A DNA stretch of 64,000 nucleotides, from the NCBI GenBank assembly GCA_045645645.1, contig JAZRJE010000017.1, positions 3,707 through 67,706 on the forward strand, given 5' to 3'. Below, piece after piece: positions 4,824 to 46,528 of the stretch. The notes beneath the pieces were generated by a model, which searched no databases, was not told the origin of the DNA, and was given only the letters and a program-made list of their open reading frames with translations. Source of the DNA: Candidatus Enterousia sp. (GTDB lineage Bacteria; Pseudomonadota; Alphaproteobacteria; Rs-D84). A program made the position numbers and the translations under genes. Positions within the stretch are counted from its first letter, which is position 1; each line of letters begins with the position of its first letter.

Positions 4824-5461
4824 AAAAACTGATAATGTTTTTTGCTGGGTTAGTTTTATTATGCCTGACATGTGGCATGATAGTTATTAGTGCTGCGATG
4901 TATGATACTGCATCACAGCAAAGTATTGACACATTCTTTTTTCAGCCTGCAAATTTGTCTTCGCAACGCATTGGTGTGCCTGCTGCCATCAGCGATTTAA
5001 GTGACGATAAAATACGTCAGATGTTGGTTGAAAAGTTTATCACAGAATATTTTTATGTAATCCCAGATATGGTTAATGTCACCCAGCGCCTGGCTGGTGA
5101 AATAGGATTACGAAAAATGGTTTCAGAATCAGTATTTAAACAGTGGCTAAACACCGTTGGGAAGGAAATTTCGCAAATGGCATCAAACAAGTCTATGCGC
5201 ATGGTACGGGTTATTGACATGTACCTTCCTGTGGGCAGTGAAGATTGGTGGACAGTAACATATGAATTAACAACTTGGGAAAAACCAAATGAATTGATCC
5301 AAGATCCAGTGATTACACGTGGTCAAATGTCTGTTAATATGCGATACGAACATGGTTTTTGGAAAGATTCCAATGGTCATGACATTGATATTGGTGCACA
5401 ACTAGAAGCAGGTGTAGATCCATCGACACTGTTTAAGTTCAGGGTATACGGCATAGAGTAG
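4820..5461 (+). CDS. bitopic membrane protein of unknown function; paralog of 4128..4823 (a VirB8/DotI-like fold is possible but not demonstrated)
   Basis: N-terminal TM helix plus ~185-aa soluble domain; translationally coupled to the upstream gene. Confidence 0.5.
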   Translation: MKKLIMFFAGLVLLCLTCGMIVISAAMYDTASQQSIDTFFFQPANLSSQRIGVPAAISDLSDDKIRQMLVEKFITEYFYVIPDMVNVTQRLAGEIGLRKMVSESVFKQWLNTVGKEISQMASNKSMRMVRVIDMYLPVGSEDWWTVTYELTTWEKPNELIQDPVITRGQMSVNMRYEHGFWKDSNGHDIDIGAQLEAGVDPSTLFKFRVYGIE

Positions 5462-5476
5462 GGATATAAGCAAACG

Positions 5477-6247
5477 ATGATTAAAAAGATAGGAATTTTT
5501 TTTATAGCATTTTGTATTACACAGAATCTGTGGTGTGATGATTTTGATTTCAGTGAATTTGCTATCACAGACAGCGGTGATACAGATTTCTTATTAGAAG
5601 GTTTAGATATCAACGCTGGGGCAGAACCTATTGCAGTTTCTGGATTTGATATTGCTGGTGTAATGTTGGGGATGGATTTTGGTGATGTTCAAACATTATT
5701 TCTAGATTCTGGTGGACTATATGCATTGCGTCCTAAGAACAGTATTGTTTACGCCATACACAAAGATTGGAGATATAATTTAGACTATGAATGTCGTCAA
5801 AGTGGAATTTTTGTGCCTGCTGAATTGGAACAGTGTGTGCGCACTTTGGCAAAAAATCGTGGTTTATTATATGCATCTGAAATGCATATGATACGTGAAA
5901 ACACTGGTGAAACACTGGATATATATTTTACCAGCAATGCCACAGACAACGTTGTTTGGCGTGTTGTTTATAAAAATGATGTTGACGTCCTAGAAGGTGA
6001 TAATGAGAAATTCATGAATCAGCGAAATAAAAAAATATTAGCATTTTGGCAAAGTGTTTTGGATAAGTATGGCACACCTAATTCTGGTTCAGACAAATGG
6101 GCGTCGTCTGATAATGCGTATGATCCGATGATGACGGCATATTATGGTGCACTAGATTTGGTTGATAATGGTCGTAATGCAACTGACGAATCGCAAAACA
6201 TTCAACAGGCACGTGAAAACTTTAAAGCAAAACCATATGCGTTCTAA
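5477..6247 (+). CDS. secreted protein of unknown function
   Basis: Clear N-terminal signal peptide (MIKKIGIFFIAFCITQNLWC); no recognisable domain; third gene of the putative 4128..6247 operon. Confidence 0.5.
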   Translation: MIKKIGIFFIAFCITQNLWCDDFDFSEFAITDSGDTDFLLEGLDINAGAEPIAVSGFDIAGVMLGMDFGDVQTLFLDSGGLYALRPKNSIVYAIHKDWRYNLDYECRQSGIFVPAELEQCVRTLAKNRGLLYASEMHMIRENTGETLDIYFTSNATDNVVWRVVYKNDVDVLEGDNEKFMNQRNKKILAFWQSVLDKYGTPNSGSDKWASSDNAYDPMMTAYYGALDLVDNGRNATDESQNIQQARENFKAKPYAF

Positions 6248-32511: not shown

Positions 32512-32967
32512 ATGACAACAGAATTGGCACCAATTTTTAAGCTGCGTGAATTATGCTTGGCATTGGTTAATCCGAAGTTTTATGCAAAGAACGCAGACTT
32601 AATTCATCGGTCATCATTAGCGGCGCAGGACTATATTTTTTCTGGTGCCGCACGTGAATACCAATCATATATGAAATCATCCTTTCATGCGTTGCCAGGG
32701 TATGTTGCGGTTCATCACAAATATAATTTAAAGGATAATGTTAATCCTAATTTAGTTATGGATTTGACGTGGAGTTTTAAAAATGACTGCATTAATGGTA
32801 TTATTGATGTGCATGGCAACATCAAAAATTATGCAACGTTGTACAATTCTAGATTTATGAGAATATATCACAACACCGATTTATCGGGCATACCAATAAA
32901 TGCATTCAGATTATATCCAGAACAGATCGAAAGATTATTAAAACAAGCAGAACAGAAAACAAGATAA
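32512..32967 (+). CDS. hypothetical protein, tandem paralog 1 (151 aa)
   Basis: Shares blocks with the next gene (F.....L......FY..N...I..SSLAAQD..FSG; SGIP..A). Confidence 0.45.
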   Translation: MTTELAPIFKLRELCLALVNPKFYAKNADLIHRSSLAAQDYIFSGAAREYQSYMKSSFHALPGYVAVHHKYNLKDNVNPNLVMDLTWSFKNDCINGIIDVHGNIKNYATLYNSRFMRIYHNTDLSGIPINAFRLYPEQIERLLKQAEQKTR

Positions 32968-32984: not shown

Positions 32985-33464
32985 ATGAAAACAAAATTAG
33001 TTGCTATTTTTGAAATGCGTAATGCGTTATTAAAACGCTGTAATTTGAGATTTTATAAACAAAATGAGCAGGTTATCAAAAATTCTTCTCTGGCTGCCCA
33101 AGATTTTTATTTTTCTGGTGATTTATCAGATTATGATGATATCAGTTTGTCAGAATTATCACATGATGCCTTGTACGCCAGTTTGCATGCCGAGTATAAC
33201 GTACCATATAATTCTTCAGATGTGCTTTGTGTAAATTCAGGTCTGGTTTTGGATTTGGCGCGCGCATTGCGTTCTGATATTGATACGGGTATTCTGGGGG
33301 CAGGTGGAGATATTATAGTCCCCGAAAGATTATCCAAGTCCCAAGTTTTGCAAACGTTTCATAATTCTGAAGATTCTGGTATCCCAGTATCAGCATTAAA
33401 ATGTATGACAGCATGTGCATATAAAAAATTCTTAAATGAATATTACAAGCGTAGAAAGCGTTAA
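32985..33464 (+). CDS. hypothetical protein, tandem paralog 2 (159 aa)
   Basis: Paralog of 32512..32967 (SSLAAQDFYFSG, SGIPVSAL); followed by a terminator. Confidence 0.45.
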   Translation: MKTKLVAIFEMRNALLKRCNLRFYKQNEQVIKNSSLAAQDFYFSGDLSDYDDISLSELSHDALYASLHAEYNVPYNSSDVLCVNSGLVLDLARALRSDIDTGILGAGGDIIVPERLSKSQVLQTFHNSEDSGIPVSALKCMTACAYKKFLNEYYKRRKR

Positions 33465-35380: not shown

Positions 35381-35394
35381 GGTATAATCAAATT

Positions 35395-35967
35395 ATGAAA
35401 AGCAAAAATAAAATGATTGTTATGATGGGCGGTCCAGGTACAGGCAAAGGGACTTTTGCCCGTATGTTACGTGATATCCATCCTGAATATACACATATTG
35501 AAACTGGGGCTATTTTACGTAGCCAACCTGACGGATCACCAATTCGTATTGCAATTGCAGAGGGAAATCTGATACCAGACGAAAAGGTGTGCGATTTAGT
35601 TGCGAAAACCATAGCACAAACTTCGGGTGATATAATCCTAGATGGTTTCCCACGAACGCTGGTTCAAGCACAGTGGCTGGTTGAAAAATACACTAATAAG
35701 TATGATGTTCAGGTAATTTATCTGAACGTTCCTGATGAAATAATGATAAAACGCATAAACAAACGCAAATCGGCTGGCAGTACCCGTAAAGACGACGGCA
35801 GCATCGATATTGTTCAACATCGCATAGACGCATTTCATAAAATTACAATGCCTGCAATACAGTGGTTGTCGGGGGTTGGTTGTATAACATTTTCCGACAT
35901 TGATTCCAGCGAAGAAGAATCTGCAAACTTTGCTCGTATCCGTATGGCGTTGAAAGACAAAAGATAA
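35395..35967 (+). CDS. adk: adenylate kinase family protein (short form)
   Basis: P-loop GGPGTGKGT and ILDGFPRT NMP-binding motif; start at the ATG at 35395, 6 nt after an extended -10 (TGGTATAAT at 35380..35388), suggesting a leaderless or near-leaderless mRNA. Confidence 0.7.
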   Translation: MKSKNKMIVMMGGPGTGKGTFARMLRDIHPEYTHIETGAILRSQPDGSPIRIAIAEGNLIPDEKVCDLVAKTIAQTSGDIILDGFPRTLVQAQWLVEKYTNKYDVQVIYLNVPDEIMIKRINKRKSAGSTRKDDGSIDIVQHRIDAFHKITMPAIQWLSGVGCITFSDIDSSEEESANFARIRMALKDKR

Positions 35968-36000
35968 AATCCCCCGATTGGGGGATTTTTTATTTTTTGT
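35966..36000. terminator. bidirectional intrinsic terminator between convergent adk and the RelA/SpoT-like gene (ATCCCCC family)
   Basis: aaaATCCCCCgattGGGGGATtttttatttttt. Confidence 0.65.
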
Positions 36001-37387
36001 AATAACGTTGAATTTCTTTCATTACAAAATTAAACAATTTACCCGCCTGGGTTGTTTGTGGCATTGCCCAGTCTCGTTGCATATATGGCATTGCAGATAC
36101 CAGCACAAATCGTGCCATAAAGTGGAAAATTTTAGATTGCTGATGTGGGCTCAGCTTTGTTGGTGCATTTTCAACACGAAAAACTTCATTTTCAATAGCG
36201 TCATCTAACTTTTCATTTATATTGTCCAGAATCTTTTGTGGATAATACAGTTTGCATTCATGTGGGAAGCCTTCGAACATGGATTTTCCATTGTCTTGGG
36301 AATAAAGAATGTTCCAGCCAACGCGCTCGAACAGGGCTTCCAGACATCGACAAATCATACGGTTATAAGACTTTACGCCATCTTCCATAAATGTTGCCAA
36401 TTTGCTTTCCATATTGTCGGATTTTGCATTTTTGCTTTTGCGCGTTGTTTCGTACACTTCGTGTGTTTTGCGTTCGAATTCAAAGAATGTACGAACCTGG
36501 CAAATAATTTCCATTGGAATGACTGTTTTGCCATGACCAATATTTAATATAATTTTTGCATCACGATAATTTCGTGGATTTGCCATGTCATAGAATTTGT
36601 CGCGACTGGATATGATTCGTTCTGGCATTTCTGCATACAGGCGTTCTATGAACGTACGTGCTTGTGGAATTAAATCGAACAAGCACTTTACGCGCCAGAC
36701 ATCTTGCAATCTGTGGTGTGGCTTTTCAATTTTGTCCAATGCGCGTACCATTTCAACTGCAATTTTTTCATGACCACGACCAATTATAGTCAACACAGTT
36801 TCAGATGCGTTTGTGATATACTTTTCTGCGAAAATTTCATGGATTTTATCTGAAATTGCACGTGCAGATGCGTCACGTCCATCGGCGCTTAAAACCCGAT
36901 ATGCAGCACGTGCCACTTCGTTCACATAGTCATGATAGTATTTGGCTGTAATTTTATCTAAGGCGCGTTCTATCTTCTTTTGCGCGGCAACGATGACTGT
37001 CACGATTGACGATACAGACAGCTCAATCTTGTGCCCTGGCAGACTTGTAAAGAATTGATTTCTCATTGGGTCTGCGTCCAGACGATGTTGAACCAAATAT
37101 GGCGACAGCGGGTGAATATCTGATATTTTCATTGGTTCATCGATTGCGGAATCAGTGGCATAGTCATATTTTACAACTGGTGCTTTTGGTGCGCCAAATG
37201 ATTTGCCTAATACGTGAAATATTTCGCGAAACCATACCATGCTGTCGCTGTACAGTGTGCACAAATAATCGGCTGCTTCTTCATTTATGCGGCCTGATTC
37301 TAATGCGCGCTCAATTGCGGTCAAGTTTTTTCTGTCTTTATCCAGTGTTAAAGTTTCCGCATAGCCATCTGGCATGCCATCAATCAT
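35990..37387 (-). CDS. RelA/SpoT-fold nucleotidyltransferase domain protein (465 aa); not a canonical Rel/SpoT
   Basis: Central region matches (p)ppGpp-synthetase-fold motifs: IIGRGHEK (GR.K), QDVWRVKCLFDLI (QDI.G.RI.C.F.D.I), YDMANP, EIICQVRTFFEFERKTHEVYE (EIQIRT....W...H..YK). No HD hydrolase, TGS or ACT regions. Lies 13 bp downstream of lysS on the same strand. Confidence 0.55.
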   Translation of the reverse strand: MIDGMPDGYAETLTLDKDRKNLTAIERALESGRINEEAADYLCTLYSDSMVWFREIFHVLGKSFGAPKAPVVKYDYATDSAIDEPMKISDIHPLSPYLVQHRLDADPMRNQFFTSLPGHKIELSVSSIVTVIVAAQKKIERALDKITAKYYHDYVNEVARAAYRVLSADGRDASARAISDKIHEIFAEKYITNASETVLTIIGRGHEKIAVEMVRALDKIEKPHHRLQDVWRVKCLFDLIPQARTFIERLYAEMPERIISSRDKFYDMANPRNYRDAKIILNIGHGKTVIPMEIICQVRTFFEFERKTHEVYETTRKSKNAKSDNMESKLATFMEDGVKSYNRMICRCLEALFERVGWNILYSQDNGKSMFEGFPHECKLYYPQKILDNINEKLDDAIENEVFRVENAPTKLSPHQQSKIFHFMARFVLVSAMPYMQRDWAMPQTTQAGKLFNFVMKEIQRYYKK

Positions 37388-37399
37388 GACTTTCCCCCT

Positions 37400-38875
37400 T
37401 TACTTCATTATCGGGAATAATATCACATCACGCAGGGTTGGTTGGTCGAATATAATGCTGGCCAAACGGTCAACACCCATACCAACACCAGAAATAGGTG
37501 GGAAGCCATGTTCCATTGCACGAACAAAGTCATTGTCTGGATTAAAGGCTTCTTCATCACCATCTGCGATATTGCGTGCCTGTTCTTCAAATGCTGCTAA
37601 TTGCTGAATTGGGTTTACAAGTTCTGAATATCCTTTGCATATTTCTGCGCCGCATACCAGCAATTGATACATATCAATTCTGCGTTCGTCAGAATCACTA
37701 CGACGTGCCAATGGCACCATATATGCTGGATAGTTGTACAAGAACGTTGGATTTACAATGTCGTTGCGGATTTTGCGTTTGTATACATAGTCTACCAATG
37801 TTGGGATAGATTTTAAATCTTCCAGTTCTGCCATTGGGAACATGCCATTGTCAACCAGTTTCTGACGCAGGGCATCAACATCATCAAAATCTAAGATGTC
37901 ACAACCAAAGAATTCATTCATCTTTGCTGTATAGTCAATCATTTCATATTTACTGAAATCCAATGGTGTACCCTGGTATTCAATCTGTAATGTGCCACGA
38001 CATTTCATCAGTAATTCTTGGATTAATTCCCATGTAAATTTGATGTTGTCGTTAAAATCCCAATATGCAGCATACCATTCAACCATTGTGAATTCTTGCA
38101 GATGCATTGCATCCATACCTTCGTTACGGAAGTCTTTTGCCACTTCATACACGCGGTCAAATCCAGCACCGATTGCTTGCTTTAAGAACAACTCTGGTGA
38201 GATACGCAACTGGAAATCAGCATCCAGTGCATTGTGGTGTGTTGTAAATGGACGTGCCGCTGCCCCAGATGCAATATTTTGCATAATTGGTGTTTCTATT
38301 TCCAAGAATCCATTACGGTTCATATATTCACGCCAATACTGTGTCATTTTAAAGCGTCCCAACAGTGCATTACGTGCCTCTGGGTTTGATATAATATCCA
38401 AATAACGCTGACGATACCGAGTTTCCATATCTGTCAAGCCATGATATTTTTCTGGCAGTGGACGCAAAGCCTTGGCCAGAATTTCGTATTTTGAAACTTT
38501 AACTGTCAGTTCACCAGCTGTTGTGTGGTACAGTTCCCCAGTGATACCAATGAAGTCGCCCAGATCAACATTTGCTTTCATAAACTTGTACGTTTCTTCG
38601 CCCAGTTCTTCACGTGACATAGAAAATTGAATTTCGCCATCAATGTCATATATGCGACCAAACATCAGTTTCCCTAACCAGCGCAATGCAGTCACACGCC
38701 CCGCCAAGCGCACCTGTGTCCCATCTGCCAAGTCGCGTGCGCCAACAATCGTATGCGTGCGATCAAATTTGTCTTTCCATACAACGCCGTCACGTGCACG
38801 AATGTTTTCAGCTTTTTGCAAGCGTGCTGTCAATTCGTTTGTTGAAATTTGTGTATTTGTTGTATTTTCTGACAT
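37400..38875 (-). CDS. lysS: lysine--tRNA ligase (class II)
   Basis: OB-fold N-terminus, class II motifs (FLEIETP, RNEGMDAMHLQEFTMVEWY, GVGMGVDRL); start at the internal Met (MSENTT). Confidence 0.9.
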   Translation of the reverse strand: MSENTTNTQISTNELTARLQKAENIRARDGVVWKDKFDRTHTIVGARDLADGTQVRLAGRVTALRWLGKLMFGRIYDIDGEIQFSMSREELGEETYKFMKANVDLGDFIGITGELYHTTAGELTVKVSKYEILAKALRPLPEKYHGLTDMETRYRQRYLDIISNPEARNALLGRFKMTQYWREYMNRNGFLEIETPIMQNIASGAAARPFTTHHNALDADFQLRISPELFLKQAIGAGFDRVYEVAKDFRNEGMDAMHLQEFTMVEWYAAYWDFNDNIKFTWELIQELLMKCRGTLQIEYQGTPLDFSKYEMIDYTAKMNEFFGCDILDFDDVDALRQKLVDNGMFPMAELEDLKSIPTLVDYVYKRKIRNDIVNPTFLYNYPAYMVPLARRSDSDERRIDMYQLLVCGAEICKGYSELVNPIQQLAAFEEQARNIADGDEEAFNPDNDFVRAMEHGFPPISGVGMGVDRLASIIFDQPTLRDVILFPIMK

Positions 38876-39010
38876 TTTATAAAATCCCTTGGTTGTGATA
38901 TAAAAAAACGGACGCATGCAAAGTGCGCCCGCAGTTTATTACTGTTGGTCGCACAATCAATTAAAGCGTTTAATTAAACATTTCATTTTTTTTATGCGCC
39001 TTTTTACCAT

Positions 39011-39039: not shown

Positions 39040-39116
39040 TGGTGCGAGCAAAGGGGCTCGAACCCTCGACCTCAACCTTGGCAAGGTTGCGCTCTAGCCA
39101 ACTGAGCTACGCTCGC
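39040..39116 (-). tRNA. tRNA-Gly (anticodon GCC)
   Basis: Reverse complement GCGAGCGTAGCTCAGTTGGCTAGAGCGCAACCTTGCCAAGGTTGAGGTCGAGGGTTCGAGCCCCTTTGCTCGCACCA. Confidence 0.85.
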
Positions 39117-41376: not shown

Positions 41377-42189
41377 TTATTCGTTGCCCCACAGGGCGGC
41401 ATCAACAATGGACATGACACGTTCTAACATAGCTTGTATTTGGCTATCTGTAGCATGTAGTGTGCCATTTAACTTTGTCATCAGATAATTAGTTTGATTC
41501 ATATAGATTGGTGACATTGCGGGATAATTTACACGCATATATTCAACTAATATATGCCACATTATCAGGTCAATCGGTGGAACAAAATGCGTATTTGATA
41601 TAGTTTCTTGCAGTTTTTCGGTAATATGTTTTAAAAATTCTGCATAATCCAACATTATATCAAATTTTATAAAGGTTCCTGCCATACCTATATTAGGTGC
41701 CTTTAAAAAATTATCGGCATTATCAATTGTATAGTCCTGAGCATTTTCCATCAAACGTAAAATGTCTAATAGATTTGACGAAATAACTACGCTATTCCCC
41801 ATGATTGCAAATGTGCTATCGGCAATATCAATTACTTTGGTGTTCAATATAATGTCGTCATCATTAGCAAACATAATCCATTTGCTTGAAATTTTGTGCG
41901 TTTTTATGTGTTCGATTGCGGCAATTCGTGTCTGTAAAAGTCCTAAATTATCAGGGTTGTTTATTATAATTAATTTTCCATGATATCCCAGCTTGCGAAC
42001 ATGCTTTTTTGTAAGCTTTTTACATGGATTATCGTTATGTATGATCAGCAATGTCTTTTTGTTTATGCCACGTAACCCTGAAACTGACAGCTTCAAGAAT
42101 TCGTGATGAAACGTGGTTAAACAAACTATCAAATCATACTTATGACGCATCATAAAATGAATTGTAAATAAAAGTTTATAAAATTGCAA
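41377..42189 (-). CDS. hypothetical protein, possibly a GT-A fold glycosyltransferase
   Basis: AT-rich 270-aa ORF with a DxD-like motif (FANDDDIIL) and an upstream LLIIHNDNP segment; the assignment is weak. Confidence 0.35.
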   Translation of the reverse strand: MQFYKLLFTIHFMMRHKYDLIVCLTTFHHEFLKLSVSGLRGINKKTLLIIHNDNPCKKLTKKHVRKLGYHGKLIIINNPDNLGLLQTRIAAIEHIKTHKISSKWIMFANDDDIILNTKVIDIADSTFAIMGNSVVISSNLLDILRLMENAQDYTIDNADNFLKAPNIGMAGTFIKFDIMLDYAEFLKHITEKLQETISNTHFVPPIDLIMWHILVEYMRVNYPAMSPIYMNQTNYLMTKLNGTLHATDSQIQAMLERVMSIVDAALWGNE

Positions 42190-42790: not shown

Positions 42791-42944
42791 TTGATTAAGC
42801 AGGTCGGGCAATGTCTATATAATTCAAGACTTTGCTGTGGCTAGAATTCAGAAAATCGCACAAAATTGCGTCTTTGGATTCTATAGACATTGCCTATATA
42901 CTGCGGGACACCTTTGTTATAAAAATCTATGAAAGGAGAAACAT

Positions 42945-43217
42945 ATGAACAAAGCTCAATTGATTGAAGCAATCGCAAACGATGTAGATATTACAAAAGC
43001 AGCAGCTGCTGCATGCGTAGATGCGTTCATCAACAACGTAACAAAAGTTCTGAAAAAGAAGGGCGAAGTTCGCTTGGTTGGTTTCGGTACATTTGCAACT
43101 GCAAAACGCAAAGCAACAACAGGTCGCAACCCACAGACAGGCGAAGCTATCAAAATCCCAGCTTCTGTTCAGCCTAAGTTCAAACCAGGTAAAGCATTGA
43201 AAGAAGCTTTGAACTAA
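42945..43217 (+). CDS. hupB: DNA-binding protein HU
   Basis: MNKAQLIEAIA...GFGTF...RNPQTGE...KFKPGKALK: canonical HU/IHF fold signature; 90 aa. Confidence 0.9.
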   Translation: MNKAQLIEAIANDVDITKAAAAACVDAFINNVTKVLKKKGEVRLVGFGTFATAKRKATTGRNPQTGEAIKIPASVQPKFKPGKALKEALN

Positions 43218-43235
43218 ACATTTCGTTTGATAACA

Positions 43236-43262
43236 AAAATCCCCCAATTGGGGGATTTTTGT
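43236..43262 (+). terminator. intrinsic terminator after hupB (ATCCCCC family)
   Basis: aaaaATCCCCCaattGGGGGATttttgtt. Confidence 0.65.
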
Positions 43263-43350
43263 TATGCTTAATAAAACGGGCGTTCCTTTGGCAAAATCAG
43301 TAAGTTCTAAAAAATAACAAATATTCATTTTGCGTTAATAATGCATTCGA

Positions 43351-45978
43351 TTACATAGACACGCCTTCTGGAATTTCTGTATCAGATCCAATAACTGTAT
43401 CACATGTTGCTTTATCTGGAATTTGATATTGTTTATTATCTTGCGTCTTATATCGAACAGGACACACTTGGTTGTCACTTGAAAATATAGCGCGTGTACA
43501 CCATGCAGTTTCATCATTAACTAATTCTGGATCTGGTGCAGCGTATGTGCACAAACTTTCTTCCGCTCCCTTACGTTGTGGCAATACTGCCAGACATTTT
43601 GCGGATTTTCCATTTTTGCTGCGACGCGCCCCATTTTCCCAACAAGAACATGTGCCCCATGATGGTGTGTCAACGGACAGTGTATAATTTCTAGGACACA
43701 TATCTTCATTATATGCGACACCATAATAATATTCTATCAAACTTCCTTCACCGAAATCAAATTGAGCTTTACACAGGTTTGTTGGATCGTAATTTGTGTT
43801 TATGTATTGGCGTTCGACAAACAAGCCCTGAACGTTAGAGCACTGGGTTGTTAAAATATCGATTACCTGATTATATACCTCAGTAGCAACGCCTGTTGGT
43901 CGTAATCTGCGATCGGAAAATTCATGCTCCTTAGCAGAATACATGCCGTACATTTCAGAATATGAGACCCCTTCTTTATTTGGTTTTTTGCCGACTATTG
44001 TACGTTTTTTTCCATCTGCACTAACATCTTCATACACGTACATTCTATCCAGCCCACCAAAAGCAGTTTCTATGATAACTGGGTCATTACAAGATTCGAT
44101 ATTTTTTAATTGTTTTGCACATGTTGAAACGTATCTTACACGTCCACCATTAAGCACAGATTCATTCGTAAAGAATTCAGTATGTTTCGGATCGTATTCA
44201 TCACTTGATTCATTGCTTATGATGTCGTATCTCTCTTTACTGATGACTTCGTATAATGTGAACCAGTCTGGTGCATTTCCAACGTTTGGTGTAAATATAC
44301 CACTGTAGGGATAATAAAAGTTTTCATATCCAGATCCACCAAAACTATCAAAGCACTGTTTTGCAACTGCGCGACATGCTGTTAGTACATCTGTTTCTTG
44401 CCTACGTTCTATATATTGAGATATGATATTGTCGTTAAACATATTATTACACGACTGTACATAGTCTGTACACATAGCGCTATTCAATGCAACACGATCT
44501 GGTTGAATTGACAGACCACTGTCGTCCAACAACTCTTTCATTGCATCAGTCATAGATTTATCGCCATTCATATAGCATGCAGATACAAAATCAAAGCAAC
44601 CTTGTCGTATTTCTGCAACTTTAGATTTTTGAGCATAATATATTGATAACATGGCTTTATCCAGATACTCTGCCCAGACGTCGTCAGCGATTTCAACACA
44701 TTTATCCAATGCATCAGATGCAAATTTCTTTGTTTTATTTTCAAAGTTTTGAACAAATTTTCGATTGTTTATAATTTTAGATAATTTTTGATTAGCAGCT
44801 TCGACACCAGATGAAAAAGTCAGCAATTCTTCCAATTTATAAAAATCGGCCACGCCAGCAATAGGTTTGCCTGTGGTTAAGTCTATGTATTCGCCGTTGT
44901 CCAGACATTTATGATATCCTGCGCCACAAACTTGTTCGCTAAGAATTGCTTTTTCGACGTCGTTCAAACAAGTTGTAAAATCAGAAGAGTTATGCTTTTG
45001 ACGATTCTCGACACGTGCCAAATCCAGCATGGCGCTGCCTTCACGTATTGTAGATTTCATTTGTTTTTGTTTGTTTTCGATTGCTGTTTGAACAGTGTTA
45101 CAGTCTTGTTCGACTGCCATTAAATATGCGGTAACTGCACGTTGTAATGAGGCATTATTACAGTCTGTGCGAACCGCATCACGGCACTGTGGATAAATGG
45201 CATTATACAGGTTTTGTCCATTATAGGTTGCGATTGCTTGTCCTGCATCCATGTTGCCAAACGCATTTGCTGTATCAAAAGACAGATTTATTGAATTTAA
45301 TTCTGTAAATTTTCCCCCAACATTTGTGTCTTTGCCTTTTATAGAATTCATTATGGCTTGCAACAGTGCTTTTGATGCGGATTTGTCATCTGTTAAGGCT
45401 TTTTCACCATCTGATGCCGTTTTCATTGCTGACGCTTGTGCAGCAGTCATGCCGACCACTGTTAAATTTTCATTAAATACAGTCAGCTTATCTCCTGCTT
45501 CATTCAAAACTTTACGTGAATCCATCAAATCAAAAACACGGTTGCTGCAAGAACATCTTCTGTAGTCATCATTTTTTAAACCACAAAATTGATCCATGCA
45601 TGTAAAATAAGAATTTTTGCAGCGCTCATATTCTGCCCCAGTGCGTGTTTGCGTTGTGTCTACTTGTGATGATGCGGAACGTGCGGATACGCGTTGAACA
45701 ACAGGTGTTATTGTTTGCTGGCTGGTGTCCAGTGAAACAGGTGTTTGTCTTGTTGTTGCTGTACGGGCAGGTGCAGTTTTTCTGGCAGTTGTTTTAGAAG
45801 CTCTTGATGAAACGGGGGCTGGATTTTTATTTGTGCGTGCATTAATTGTGCTTACACGTTGACTGGTTTTTGCTGCGGGATTTTTTGCACGCACAGCCAC
45901 ATTACCGTCACGTGTTGCGGCATCAGCCCTGCATATAAACAGCAGGCAATACATAGCAAAAATTGCAATCCTTCTCAT
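43351..45978 (-). CDS. large secreted cysteine-rich protein of unknown function (~876 aa)
   Basis: Start at the internal Met with a signal peptide (MRRIAIFAMYCLLFICRADA). Ser/Thr/Arg-rich low-complexity linker, then >40 Cys spread through the sequence. Confidence 0.55.
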   Translation of the reverse strand: MRRIAIFAMYCLLFICRADAATRDGNVAVRAKNPAAKTSQRVSTINARTNKNPAPVSSRASKTTARKTAPARTATTRQTPVSLDTSQQTITPVVQRVSARSASSQVDTTQTRTGAEYERCKNSYFTCMDQFCGLKNDDYRRCSCSNRVFDLMDSRKVLNEAGDKLTVFNENLTVVGMTAAQASAMKTASDGEKALTDDKSASKALLQAIMNSIKGKDTNVGGKFTELNSINLSFDTANAFGNMDAGQAIATYNGQNLYNAIYPQCRDAVRTDCNNASLQRAVTAYLMAVEQDCNTVQTAIENKQKQMKSTIREGSAMLDLARVENRQKHNSSDFTTCLNDVEKAILSEQVCGAGYHKCLDNGEYIDLTTGKPIAGVADFYKLEELLTFSSGVEAANQKLSKIINNRKFVQNFENKTKKFASDALDKCVEIADDVWAEYLDKAMLSIYYAQKSKVAEIRQGCFDFVSACYMNGDKSMTDAMKELLDDSGLSIQPDRVALNSAMCTDYVQSCNNMFNDNIISQYIERRQETDVLTACRAVAKQCFDSFGGSGYENFYYPYSGIFTPNVGNAPDWFTLYEVISKERYDIISNESSDEYDPKHTEFFTNESVLNGGRVRYVSTCAKQLKNIESCNDPVIIETAFGGLDRMYVYEDVSADGKKRTIVGKKPNKEGVSYSEMYGMYSAKEHEFSDRRLRPTGVATEVYNQVIDILTTQCSNVQGLFVERQYINTNYDPTNLCKAQFDFGEGSLIEYYYGVAYNEDMCPRNYTLSVDTPSWGTCSCWENGARRSKNGKSAKCLAVLPQRKGAEESLCTYAAPDPELVNDETAWCTRAIFSSDNQVCPVRYKTQDNKQYQIPDKATCDTVIGSDTEIPEGVSM

Positions 45979-46120
45979 CTTCTTTGGAATGTTAGCAAAT
46001 TTATAAAAATTAGAGCAAGTGAAATATGCAAGTTTAAATACGATTATTATCTTTTTTATACATATGTTTAATTTTTCTTGTTGCATTGAGCAGATTTTTA
46101 ATATAATATATCAGACACCT

Positions 46121-46207
46121 GCGGATATGGCGGAATTGGTAGACGCGCTAGTTTCAGGTACTAGTGGTGGCGACACCTTGGAAGTTCGAGTCTTCTTATC
46201 CGCACCA
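46121..46207 (+). tRNA. tRNA-Leu (anticodon CAG)
   Basis: GCGGATATGGCGGAATTGGTAGACGCGCTAGTTTCAGGTACTAG...TTCGAGTCTTCTTATCCGCACCA; long variable arm. Confidence 0.85.
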
Positions 46208-46212
46208 TATTT

Positions 46213-46288
46213 GGGGTTGTAGCTCAGCTGATAGAGCGCTACGTTCGCATCGTAGAGGTCGTGGGTTTGAGTCCCATCAGCTCCACCA
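46213..46288 (+). tRNA. tRNA-Ala (anticodon read as CGC)
   Basis: GGGGTTGTAGCTCAGCTGATAGAGCGCTACGTTCGCATCGTAGAGGTCGTGGGTTTGAGTCCCATCAGCTCCACCA; G3:U70 Ala identity pair is present. Confidence 0.75.
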
Positions 46289-46308
46289 GTTTTTGCAGAA
46301 AAGTCTTC

Positions 46309-46395
46309 GGGGATATGGCGGAATGGTAGACGCTGAGGACTTAAAATCCTTTGGTCATTGCGACCGTGTGGGTTCAAGTCCCACTATCCCCACCA
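46309..46395 (+). tRNA. tRNA-Leu (anticodon TAA)
   Basis: GGGGATATGGCGGAATGGTAGACGCTGAGGACTTAAAATCCTT...GGTTCAAGTCCCACTATCCCCACCA. Confidence 0.85.
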
Positions 46396-46451
46396 CTATT
46401 TATCTTTGTGGTTTATGGTGTGTCCAATTCGCCCGTTGGCGTTTTTTTTTA

Positions 46452-46528
46452 GGATGAATAGTTCAGTTGGTTAGAGCATCACGTTCACATCGTGGGGGTC
46501 GCTGGTTCGAGTCCAGTTTCATCCACCA
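46452..46528 (+). tRNA. tRNA-Val (anticodon CAC)
   Basis: GGATGAATAGTTCAGTTGGTTAGAGCATCACGTTCACATCGTGGGGGTCGCTGGTTCGAGTCCAGTTTCATCCACCA. Confidence 0.85.

Follow-up and report, generated by a model that had tools for sequence, protein, structure and literature searches.

What does a protein that no sequence profile recognises do directly behind the gene of a lysyl-tRNA synthetase (LysRS)? The question is raised by a 64,000-nt stretch of DNA from Candidatus Enterousia (called the window below), in which a 465-aa protein is encoded on the minus strand at 35990..37387, next to lysS. The protein and its gene are named X throughout. RelA/SpoT homologue (RSH) enzymes, to which the original prediction had likened X, form the core of bacterial starvation signalling and have more recently been recognised as tRNA-blocking toxins. 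X proved to be an RSH-fold protein with its catalytic residues intact, kept across a lineage of some 900 genes and tied to lysS. The fold assignment is a confirmation and no surprise; it is the context that makes a housekeeping role of an orphan RSH enzyme directly testable.

Fold and active site of X

Profile searches left X without a family. No Pfam entry of any kind matched it at E≤1, there was no NCBIfam or PADLOC match, and no meaningful PHROGs match was obtained. A significant hit to the RelA_SpoT hidden Markov model (HMM; PF04607) had been proposed as a check of the fold, and by this measure the prediction failed: none of the 49 members of the X family matched the profile, even at E≤10, nor did any of 10 distant relatives in a Pfam search. 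Likewise, no RSH was found among the PDB sequences, either with X as the query (phmmer) or with the X family profile. The complete lack of Pfam matches did bear out the claim that the HD, TGS and ACT regions are missing.

Structure prediction, for its part, placed X among the RSH synthetases. An AlphaFold2 model was obtained with 49 family sequences (pLDDT 77.8, pTM 0.70), and the top 50 Foldseek matches were RSH synthetases only, with E values of ∼1e-3 and probabilities of ∼0.7 to 1.0. The modelled three-dimensional fold is that of the RSH synthetases and is distinct from that of generic Pol-beta nucleotidyltransferases. Among the structural matches, Tas1 showed the highest pairwise identity to X (19 to 21%). 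The AlphaFold2 and Foldseek results thus make the RSH fold assignment well supported, and the model identifies X as a structural member of the RSH synthetase superfamily that has diverged past sequence-HMM detection. The fold had been placed in the central ∼140 aa; its presence was confirmed and its extent was not, as the match covers essentially a whole small alarmone synthetase (SAS). The parts of X are as follows, with positions in the window.

35990..37387 (−): X, RSH-fold protein of 465 aa, ATG start; stop codon 35990-35992
37196..37363 (−): residues 9-64, three helices at the N terminus
37007..37192 (−): residues 66-127, insertion rich in beta structure, with a long hairpin
residues 128-152: donor-site strand and helix, from the secondary structure of the model
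36941..36988 (−): residues 134-149, proposed donor-site motif AAQK137-KIER141-ALDK145, strand to helix
36722..36931 (−): residues 153-222, helical insertion peculiar to the clade, placed after the donor helix and before beta2
36428..36721 (−): residues 223-320, sheet and helix of the catalytic core
35993..36427 (−): long helix from residue 321 to ∼362, then C-terminal helical domain, ∼373-465

The N- and C-terminal extensions had been described as being of no recognisable type. For the C-terminal part this stood, since no specific family or fold matched it; residues 9-64, on the other hand, probably correspond to the N-terminal helices of SASs, and N21, I25, I34, Y46 and M50 are invariant throughout the superfamily. 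Residues 1-65 are acidic and hydrophilic (pI 4.6), while the C-terminal domain is basic (pI 9.1; 9.1 to 9.7 for the core plus the C terminus). The relatives of X comprise intermediates of 34 to 58% identity and a distant branch of ∼20%, in which the region 66-127 is shorter. The hairpin tip in this region (residues 101-113, HRLDADPMRNQFF, nt 37049-37087) does not vary within the Enterousia family, yet is modelled with a pLDDT below 50, and is a candidate interface for a partner or substrate; the low-pLDDT segment of the model comprises residues 109-125. A profile match between residues 77-136 (36977-37156) and the HU/IHF-type DNA-binding protein PDB 2ndp (E 0.53), spanning the long hairpin with its disordered tip, was rejected for lack of significance and because the distant branch has only a short version of this region. 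As a separate observation, cysteines C235, C296, C346, C348 and C378 are invariant in the Enterousia family and not in the distant branch, and might form a metal or redox site.

The catalytic Asp and Glu could be aligned with those of RelQ, as predicted. The X superfamily profile was compared by hhalign with an alignment of five RSHs, namely Bacillus subtilis RelQ, two streptococcal SASs, and RelA and SpoT of Escherichia coli (from its annotated genome); the RelQ sequence was verified to be essentially identical to PDB 5ded. The comparison, at 71 to 81% probability, paired D229 with RelQ D72, Y274 with Y116 and E293 with E139. All three residues are strictly invariant in the superfamily (65/65), as are K137, R141, K145, R232, K278, H309, Y312 and R316. 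In the FaRel2 and RelP structures the Asp holds Mg2+, the Tyr of the G-loop stacks on the acceptor base, and the Glu is that of the EIQ motif (PMC11782079). The core motifs of X read LQD229VWR232VK, ANPR272NY274RDAK278 (the G-loop), ME293IICQVRT and H309xxY312ExxxR316. All the peptide strings quoted in the original prediction were found in the translation of X, and three of its four motif assignments were correct; the fourth, "IIGRGHEK", was not, as it sits in the 153-222 insertion (helices 149-218 in the model), which is gapped in 44 of the 65 superfamily sequences.

We propose a different segment, AAQK137-KIER141-ALDK145, as the true motif 1, equivalent to the RxKxxxSxxxK of RSHs. In FaRel2, the ATP triphosphate is gripped by R64, K66, S70, K74 and R77 on beta1 and the basic helix that follows (PMC11782079). 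In the X model, strand 128-136 leads straight into helix 139-147, giving a beta1/alpha3 topology that carries A135-Q-K137-xxx-R141-xxx-K145; the spacing equals that of the RSH motif, and its three basic residues do not vary. At position 135, 35 of 44 distant-branch sequences have Lys or Arg, and Enterousia has Ala. The register comes from sequence and model, hhalign having left it unfixed with the insertion in or out. Taken with the retained catalytic residues, sequence and model point to a catalytically competent enzyme as the best-supported state of X.

Compared with the SASs RelQ/SAS1 and RelP/SAS2 (PDB 5dec, 5ded, 6fgk and 6ewz), X has no detectable sequence-HMM similarity and is much longer (465 versus ∼210 aa), adding the beta-hairpin insertion 66-127, the helical insertion 153-222 and the C-terminal helical domain. 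Relative to RelQ, R46 is replaced by Ala, S52 by Arg and the Gln of EIQ by Ile. Relative to the G-loop of RelQ and the ANPKPNGYQSIH of RelA, that of X, ANPR-NYRDAK, is short by two residues, and the His position of GYxSxH is taken by the invariant K278. With the long RSHs (Rel, SpoT and RelA) only ∼145 residues align, and their HD, TGS, helical, ZFD and RRM/ACT domains are absent from X. Like CapRel(SJ46) (PDB 7ztb), X joins an RSH synthetase domain to a C-terminal domain in one polypeptide, with no separate antitoxin and with a tRNA theme in both cases; however, the pseudo-Zn-finger antitoxin domain with its YXXY switch and the prophage or defence-island context are CapRel's and were not found for X. 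The layout was therefore rightly held to be unlike those described for toxSAS and CapRel proteins, and X fits no described RSH architecture. The published RSH census was HMM based (PMC7229694), and so the X family would have been missed by it.

Conservation of X and its linkage to lysS

X is a genuine gene under selection and no chance ORF (open reading frame). The ATG-initiated, 465-aa ORF claimed at 35990-37387 on the minus strand was recovered exactly in the six-frame ORF list, and its GC content is ordinary for the window. Close pairs of X gave dN values of 0.05 to 0.19 with saturated dS; where ω could be computed it was ∼0.02 to 0.08, resembling that of LysRS, for which some dN/dS values were artefacts of gapped tblastn segments and were disregarded. 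A search of 5.8 billion proteins yielded 612 homologous clusters. The best 120 of these are ∼466 aa long and 71 to 90% identical, and the named entries among them are all "hypothetical protein" from an uncultured alphaproteobacterium. When GTDB species were scanned with one genome each, X was encoded in 276 genomes, all of them Candidatus Enterousia or unnamed metagenome-assembled genomes (MAGs) of gut Alphaproteobacteria, from ruminants and other animals. When 1.84 billion representatives were searched exhaustively with HMMER, only 49 proteins came back, many of them fragmentary, and the superfamily is thus narrow. X is specific to a single uncultured, reduced-genome order, Rs-D84. Enterousia, a member of this order, has genomes of ∼0.75 to 1.0 Mb with ∼900 genes, is devoid of amino acid, nucleotide and lipid biosynthesis, and is thought to consist of obligate symbionts or parasites (PMC12306168).

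The features of the lysS-X unit and its downstream border are as follows.

37400..38917 (−): lysS, class II lysyl-tRNA synthetase, 505-aa ORF, same strand as X
37388..37399 (−): lysS-X junction of 12 nt, TAA-AGGGGGAAAGTC-ATG
35966..35989: putative intrinsic terminator (AAAATCCCCCAATCGGGGGATTTT) working in both directions, adjoining the X stop codon and common to the convergent adk-like gene
35392-35967 (+): convergent adenylate-kinase-like P-loop kinase, 191 aa

The lysS product matched the NCBIfam lysine--tRNA ligase model NF001756 with 522.9 bits (cutoff, 468) and contains the Pfam tRNA-synt_2 and anticodon OB domains. X lies directly downstream on the same strand, as had been stated, although the gap is 12 nt and not 13 bp. 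This junction leaves no room for a promoter, and a strong Shine-Dalgarno (SD) sequence, AGGGGG, stands 6 nt ahead of the X ATG. Of 80 loci retrieved, 79 have lysS immediately upstream of X on the same strand, with gaps of ∼6 to 32 nt, and the 80th (L036) carries a lysS remnant at the same place. The genes that flank lysS-X vary among species, and the arrangement itself is fixed. Across the retrieved loci, mean identity to the window was 75% for X and 87% for LysRS. We infer from the order lysS-SD-X-terminator, the last element resting on a terminator scan and the sequence, that X is cotranscribed with lysS, to which it is probably also translationally coupled. In contrast to RelQ and RelP, X is limited to one uncultured order and to a fixed operon with lysS, and no published link between an SAS and a lysS operon was found in the literature. 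We regard the X family as an RSH subfamily confined to one lineage, marked by its insertions and, within a minimal genome, by a constant operon partner, a tRNA synthetase.

Two loci deserve separate mention. In L036, short N- and C-terminal pieces of lysS (5726-5953) precede an intact X, reflecting an internal deletion or an assembly artefact. In MAG JAZSNY01, two contigs (L019 and L065) each carry a lysS-X pair, with X 88% and 74% identical to that of the window; two species mixed in one bin are a likelier cause than a duplication.

Candidate functions

Our preferred reading, to which we assign a probability of about 0.4, is that X would be a stand-alone RSH-type pyrophosphokinase making an alarmone from a purine nucleotide, by analogy with known SASs. 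In a mechanism modelled by homology on RelQ, RelP and FaRel2, ATP-Mg2+ would be bound at the donor site by the basic helix (K137, R141 and K145), the Mg-binding D229 and R232. The acceptor purine base would stack on Y274 of the G-loop, between the basic R272 and K278, and E293 would assist the transfer of the beta,gamma-pyrophosphate of ATP to the 3'-OH of the acceptor ribose, with release of AMP. X would work with neither a hydrolase domain nor an antitoxin. Made from the LysRS transcript, it would have a dosage that follows that of a tRNA synthetase. X would then be a minimal, constitutively coexpressed (p)ppGpp or (p)ppApp synthetase in an organism that imports amino acids and nucleotides, and its clade-specific insertions and C-terminal domain would serve regulation or partner binding. 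A precedent for such a partner is the PANGU type I system Pag1B/GRel, which likewise combines an RSH domain and a C-terminal accessory domain in a two-gene operon with an activating protein partner (bioRxiv 10.64898/2026.04.06.716658); by analogy, LysRS could regulate X, although in PANGU a nucleoid-associated protein takes the partner's place and the whole is a mobile antiphage module.

X itself is a core housekeeping gene, outside toxin-antitoxin, defence and secretion modules. The purine nucleotide acceptor is the least certain step of the preferred reading, a guess by analogy. It is favoured because the characterised SASs that need no antitoxin, RelP and RelQ, are nucleotide enzymes (PMC7229694), and because X keeps the basic residues around the stacking Tyr, which are present in alarmone synthetases and largely missing in FaRel2 (PMC11782079). 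As an alarmone maker, X would define a minimal stringent system with neither hydrolase nor ribosome-sensing domains.

Several points weigh against an alarmone synthetase. Membership of X in the RSH family is backed by no sequence HMM, the hhalign probabilities are moderate and come from a small template of five sequences, and the model is of medium confidence. The donor site is remodelled: in Enterousia, Ala135 stands in for the Arg of RelQ (R46) and FaRel2 (R64), and Ile295 for the Gln of EIQ, which the distant branch keeps; the DxxGxR Arg is found at i+3 (R232) and not at i+5. ATP binding or the identity of the donor could thus differ. No alarmone hydrolase was seen in the window neighbourhood, where a Pfam and ORF survey turned up neither a hydrolase of the HD or Nudix type nor a small gene resembling an antitoxin. 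With RelA, SpoT and SAS queries, tblastn detected no canonical RSH either in the window or across 1.13 Mb of Rs-D84 loci, redundant DNA that represents little of any genome and does not establish absence. Finally, three of six independent gene contexts of the superfamily are tRNA related (lysS, ybaK and a TrhP-like gene), which points to a tRNA as the acceptor instead.

Such an acceptor is the next possibility, a less probable one: X may be a pyrophosphokinase of the tRNA 3'-CCA end that shares its chemistry with CapRel, FaRel2 and PhRel2 and serves as a resident, regulated housekeeping brake on aminoacylation. Its target might be tRNA-Lys, or it might work as a complex with LysRS, and the insertions and the C-terminal domain would provide tRNA recognition, autoinhibition or both. 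The fixed lysS-X operon agrees with this idea, as do the neighbours of X-like genes in other branches. In the distant branch (L009 to L011), a divergent gene for a ybaK Cys-tRNA(Pro) deacylase lies ∼150 bp away (TIGR00011, 154.8 bits, just over the cutoff of 153.25), at the following positions.

L009, 6370-6843: ybaK-type gene
L010, 6096-6566: ybaK-type gene
L011, 3028-3498: ybaK-type gene

In another branch (L095), a U32 gene follows the X-like gene by 2 nt, its best match, below threshold, being the tRNA hydroxylase TrhP. The contexts of the remaining branches are ruvB, a neighbour of the X-like gene in the intermediate L094 and L096, and transporters in L012 and L013. The tRNA signal in these contexts is suggestive but weak, because a 900-gene genome carries many translation genes. 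RNA binding could fall to the additional modules (N-terminal, hairpin and C-terminal) and to the core and C terminus, which are basic; toxSASs contact the acceptor stem through variable accessory regions (PMC11559606), and CapRel is a precedent for a single polypeptide that bears its own inhibitor (PMC11782079). Were a tRNA the acceptor, X would represent the first housekeeping, non-toxin use of tRNA 3'-pyrophosphorylation. For either acceptor, a testable function is gained for a conserved "hypothetical" core gene of abundant uncultured gut bacteria of livestock and other animals.

More doubtful is a closer partnership, in which X as a housekeeping enzyme working physically or functionally with LysRS would mark the tRNA 3' end (perhaps that of tRNA-Lys) or use a LysRS product, and so tune aminoacylation in a minimal-genome symbiont that would have given up the classical ribosome-dependent stringent factor. 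The hairpin loop at residues 101-113 would be the interface with LysRS or tRNA; it arises in the same clade in which the lysS linkage became fixed.

It is unlikely that X is a dead RSH-fold pseudoenzyme, such as a nucleotide sensor or a scaffold for LysRS, or that it uses a different acceptor or donor nucleotide. The altered donor-base pocket (R to A135, G to R232, R to K234 or T, and Q to I295), the shortened G-loop, the extreme sequence divergence and the large insertions are in line with such a protein. Nevertheless, branches of only ∼20% identity all keep the Asp that binds Mg, the catalytic Glu, the Tyr that stacks and three basic residues of the donor helix, a strict retention that is hard to explain without catalysis.

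Least of all do the data fit a toxic effector or antiphage defence protein, either a CapRel-like fused toxSAS or a Tas1-like (p)ppApp synthetase aimed at a partner or host cell: X shares the RSH fold with Tas1 (PDB 6ox6) and the exported SaSAS (PDB 8vx3), but virtually all species have it, at one and the same locus and sharing an operon with an essential gene; it evolves little faster than LysRS, its dN far below dS, has in its N-terminal sequence no obvious signal peptide or secretion-associated domain, lacks an adjacent immunity or antitoxin gene (the terminator and the convergent adk-like gene follow it directly), gave negative PADLOC and PHROGs searches, and has a distant relative, P0153, for which tblastn found no match in phage or plasmid collections. 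The adjacent antitoxin and the patchy, mobile distribution of the toxSASs FaRel, FaRel2, PhRel and PhRel2 are likewise not those of X, and the earlier suggestion of a host-directed effector is disfavoured by the housekeeping locus. In L094, whose X-like protein is 34% identical, the gene between ruvB and the X-like gene, at 5379-5732, encodes a protein of 117 aa that bears a CdiA_C toxin domain (64.6 bits).

Surroundings of the lysS-X unit

The convergent adk-like gene matched Pfam ADK with 91.6 bits and fell under every NCBIfam adk equivalog cutoff (best, 105 bits versus 168). The other identified neighbours of X are housekeeping genes (ligA, tig, thyA, rpsA, alaS and a comM-like gene), together with several ORFs that have no Pfam match.

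Upstream of lysS on the minus strand, the order is alaS with a terminator, a promoter-like site, tRNA-Gly (39040-39116) with a hairpin, and a second hairpin with a U-tract. The latter (38908-38932) overlaps the 5' end of the long lysS ORF. A better SD sequence (AAGGGA) precedes M15 at 38875, and relatives are called at 488 to 492 aa; the true lysS start is thus probably M15, ∼25 nt past the U-tract hairpin. This hairpin may terminate or attenuate transcription arriving from tRNA-Gly. An Rfam scan around lysS-X at E≤1 gave no T-box, riboswitch or leader, only the tRNA-Gly and subthreshold noise. The promoter scan found 12 sites against 12.0 expected from shuffled sequences, and with no enrichment no promoter is claimed.

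Six ORFs near X lacked any Pfam match and are further lineage-specific unknowns in this genome of ∼900 genes.

43351-46086 (−): ORF of 911 aa
31828-32499: smaller ORF
32512-32967: smaller ORF
32985-33464: smaller ORF
41377-42189: smaller ORF
42927-43328: smaller ORF

A cluster of four tRNAs (Leu-CAG, Ala-CGC, Leu-TAA and Val-CAC) is found at 46121-46528 (+), and the window carries nine tRNAs in its 64 kb.
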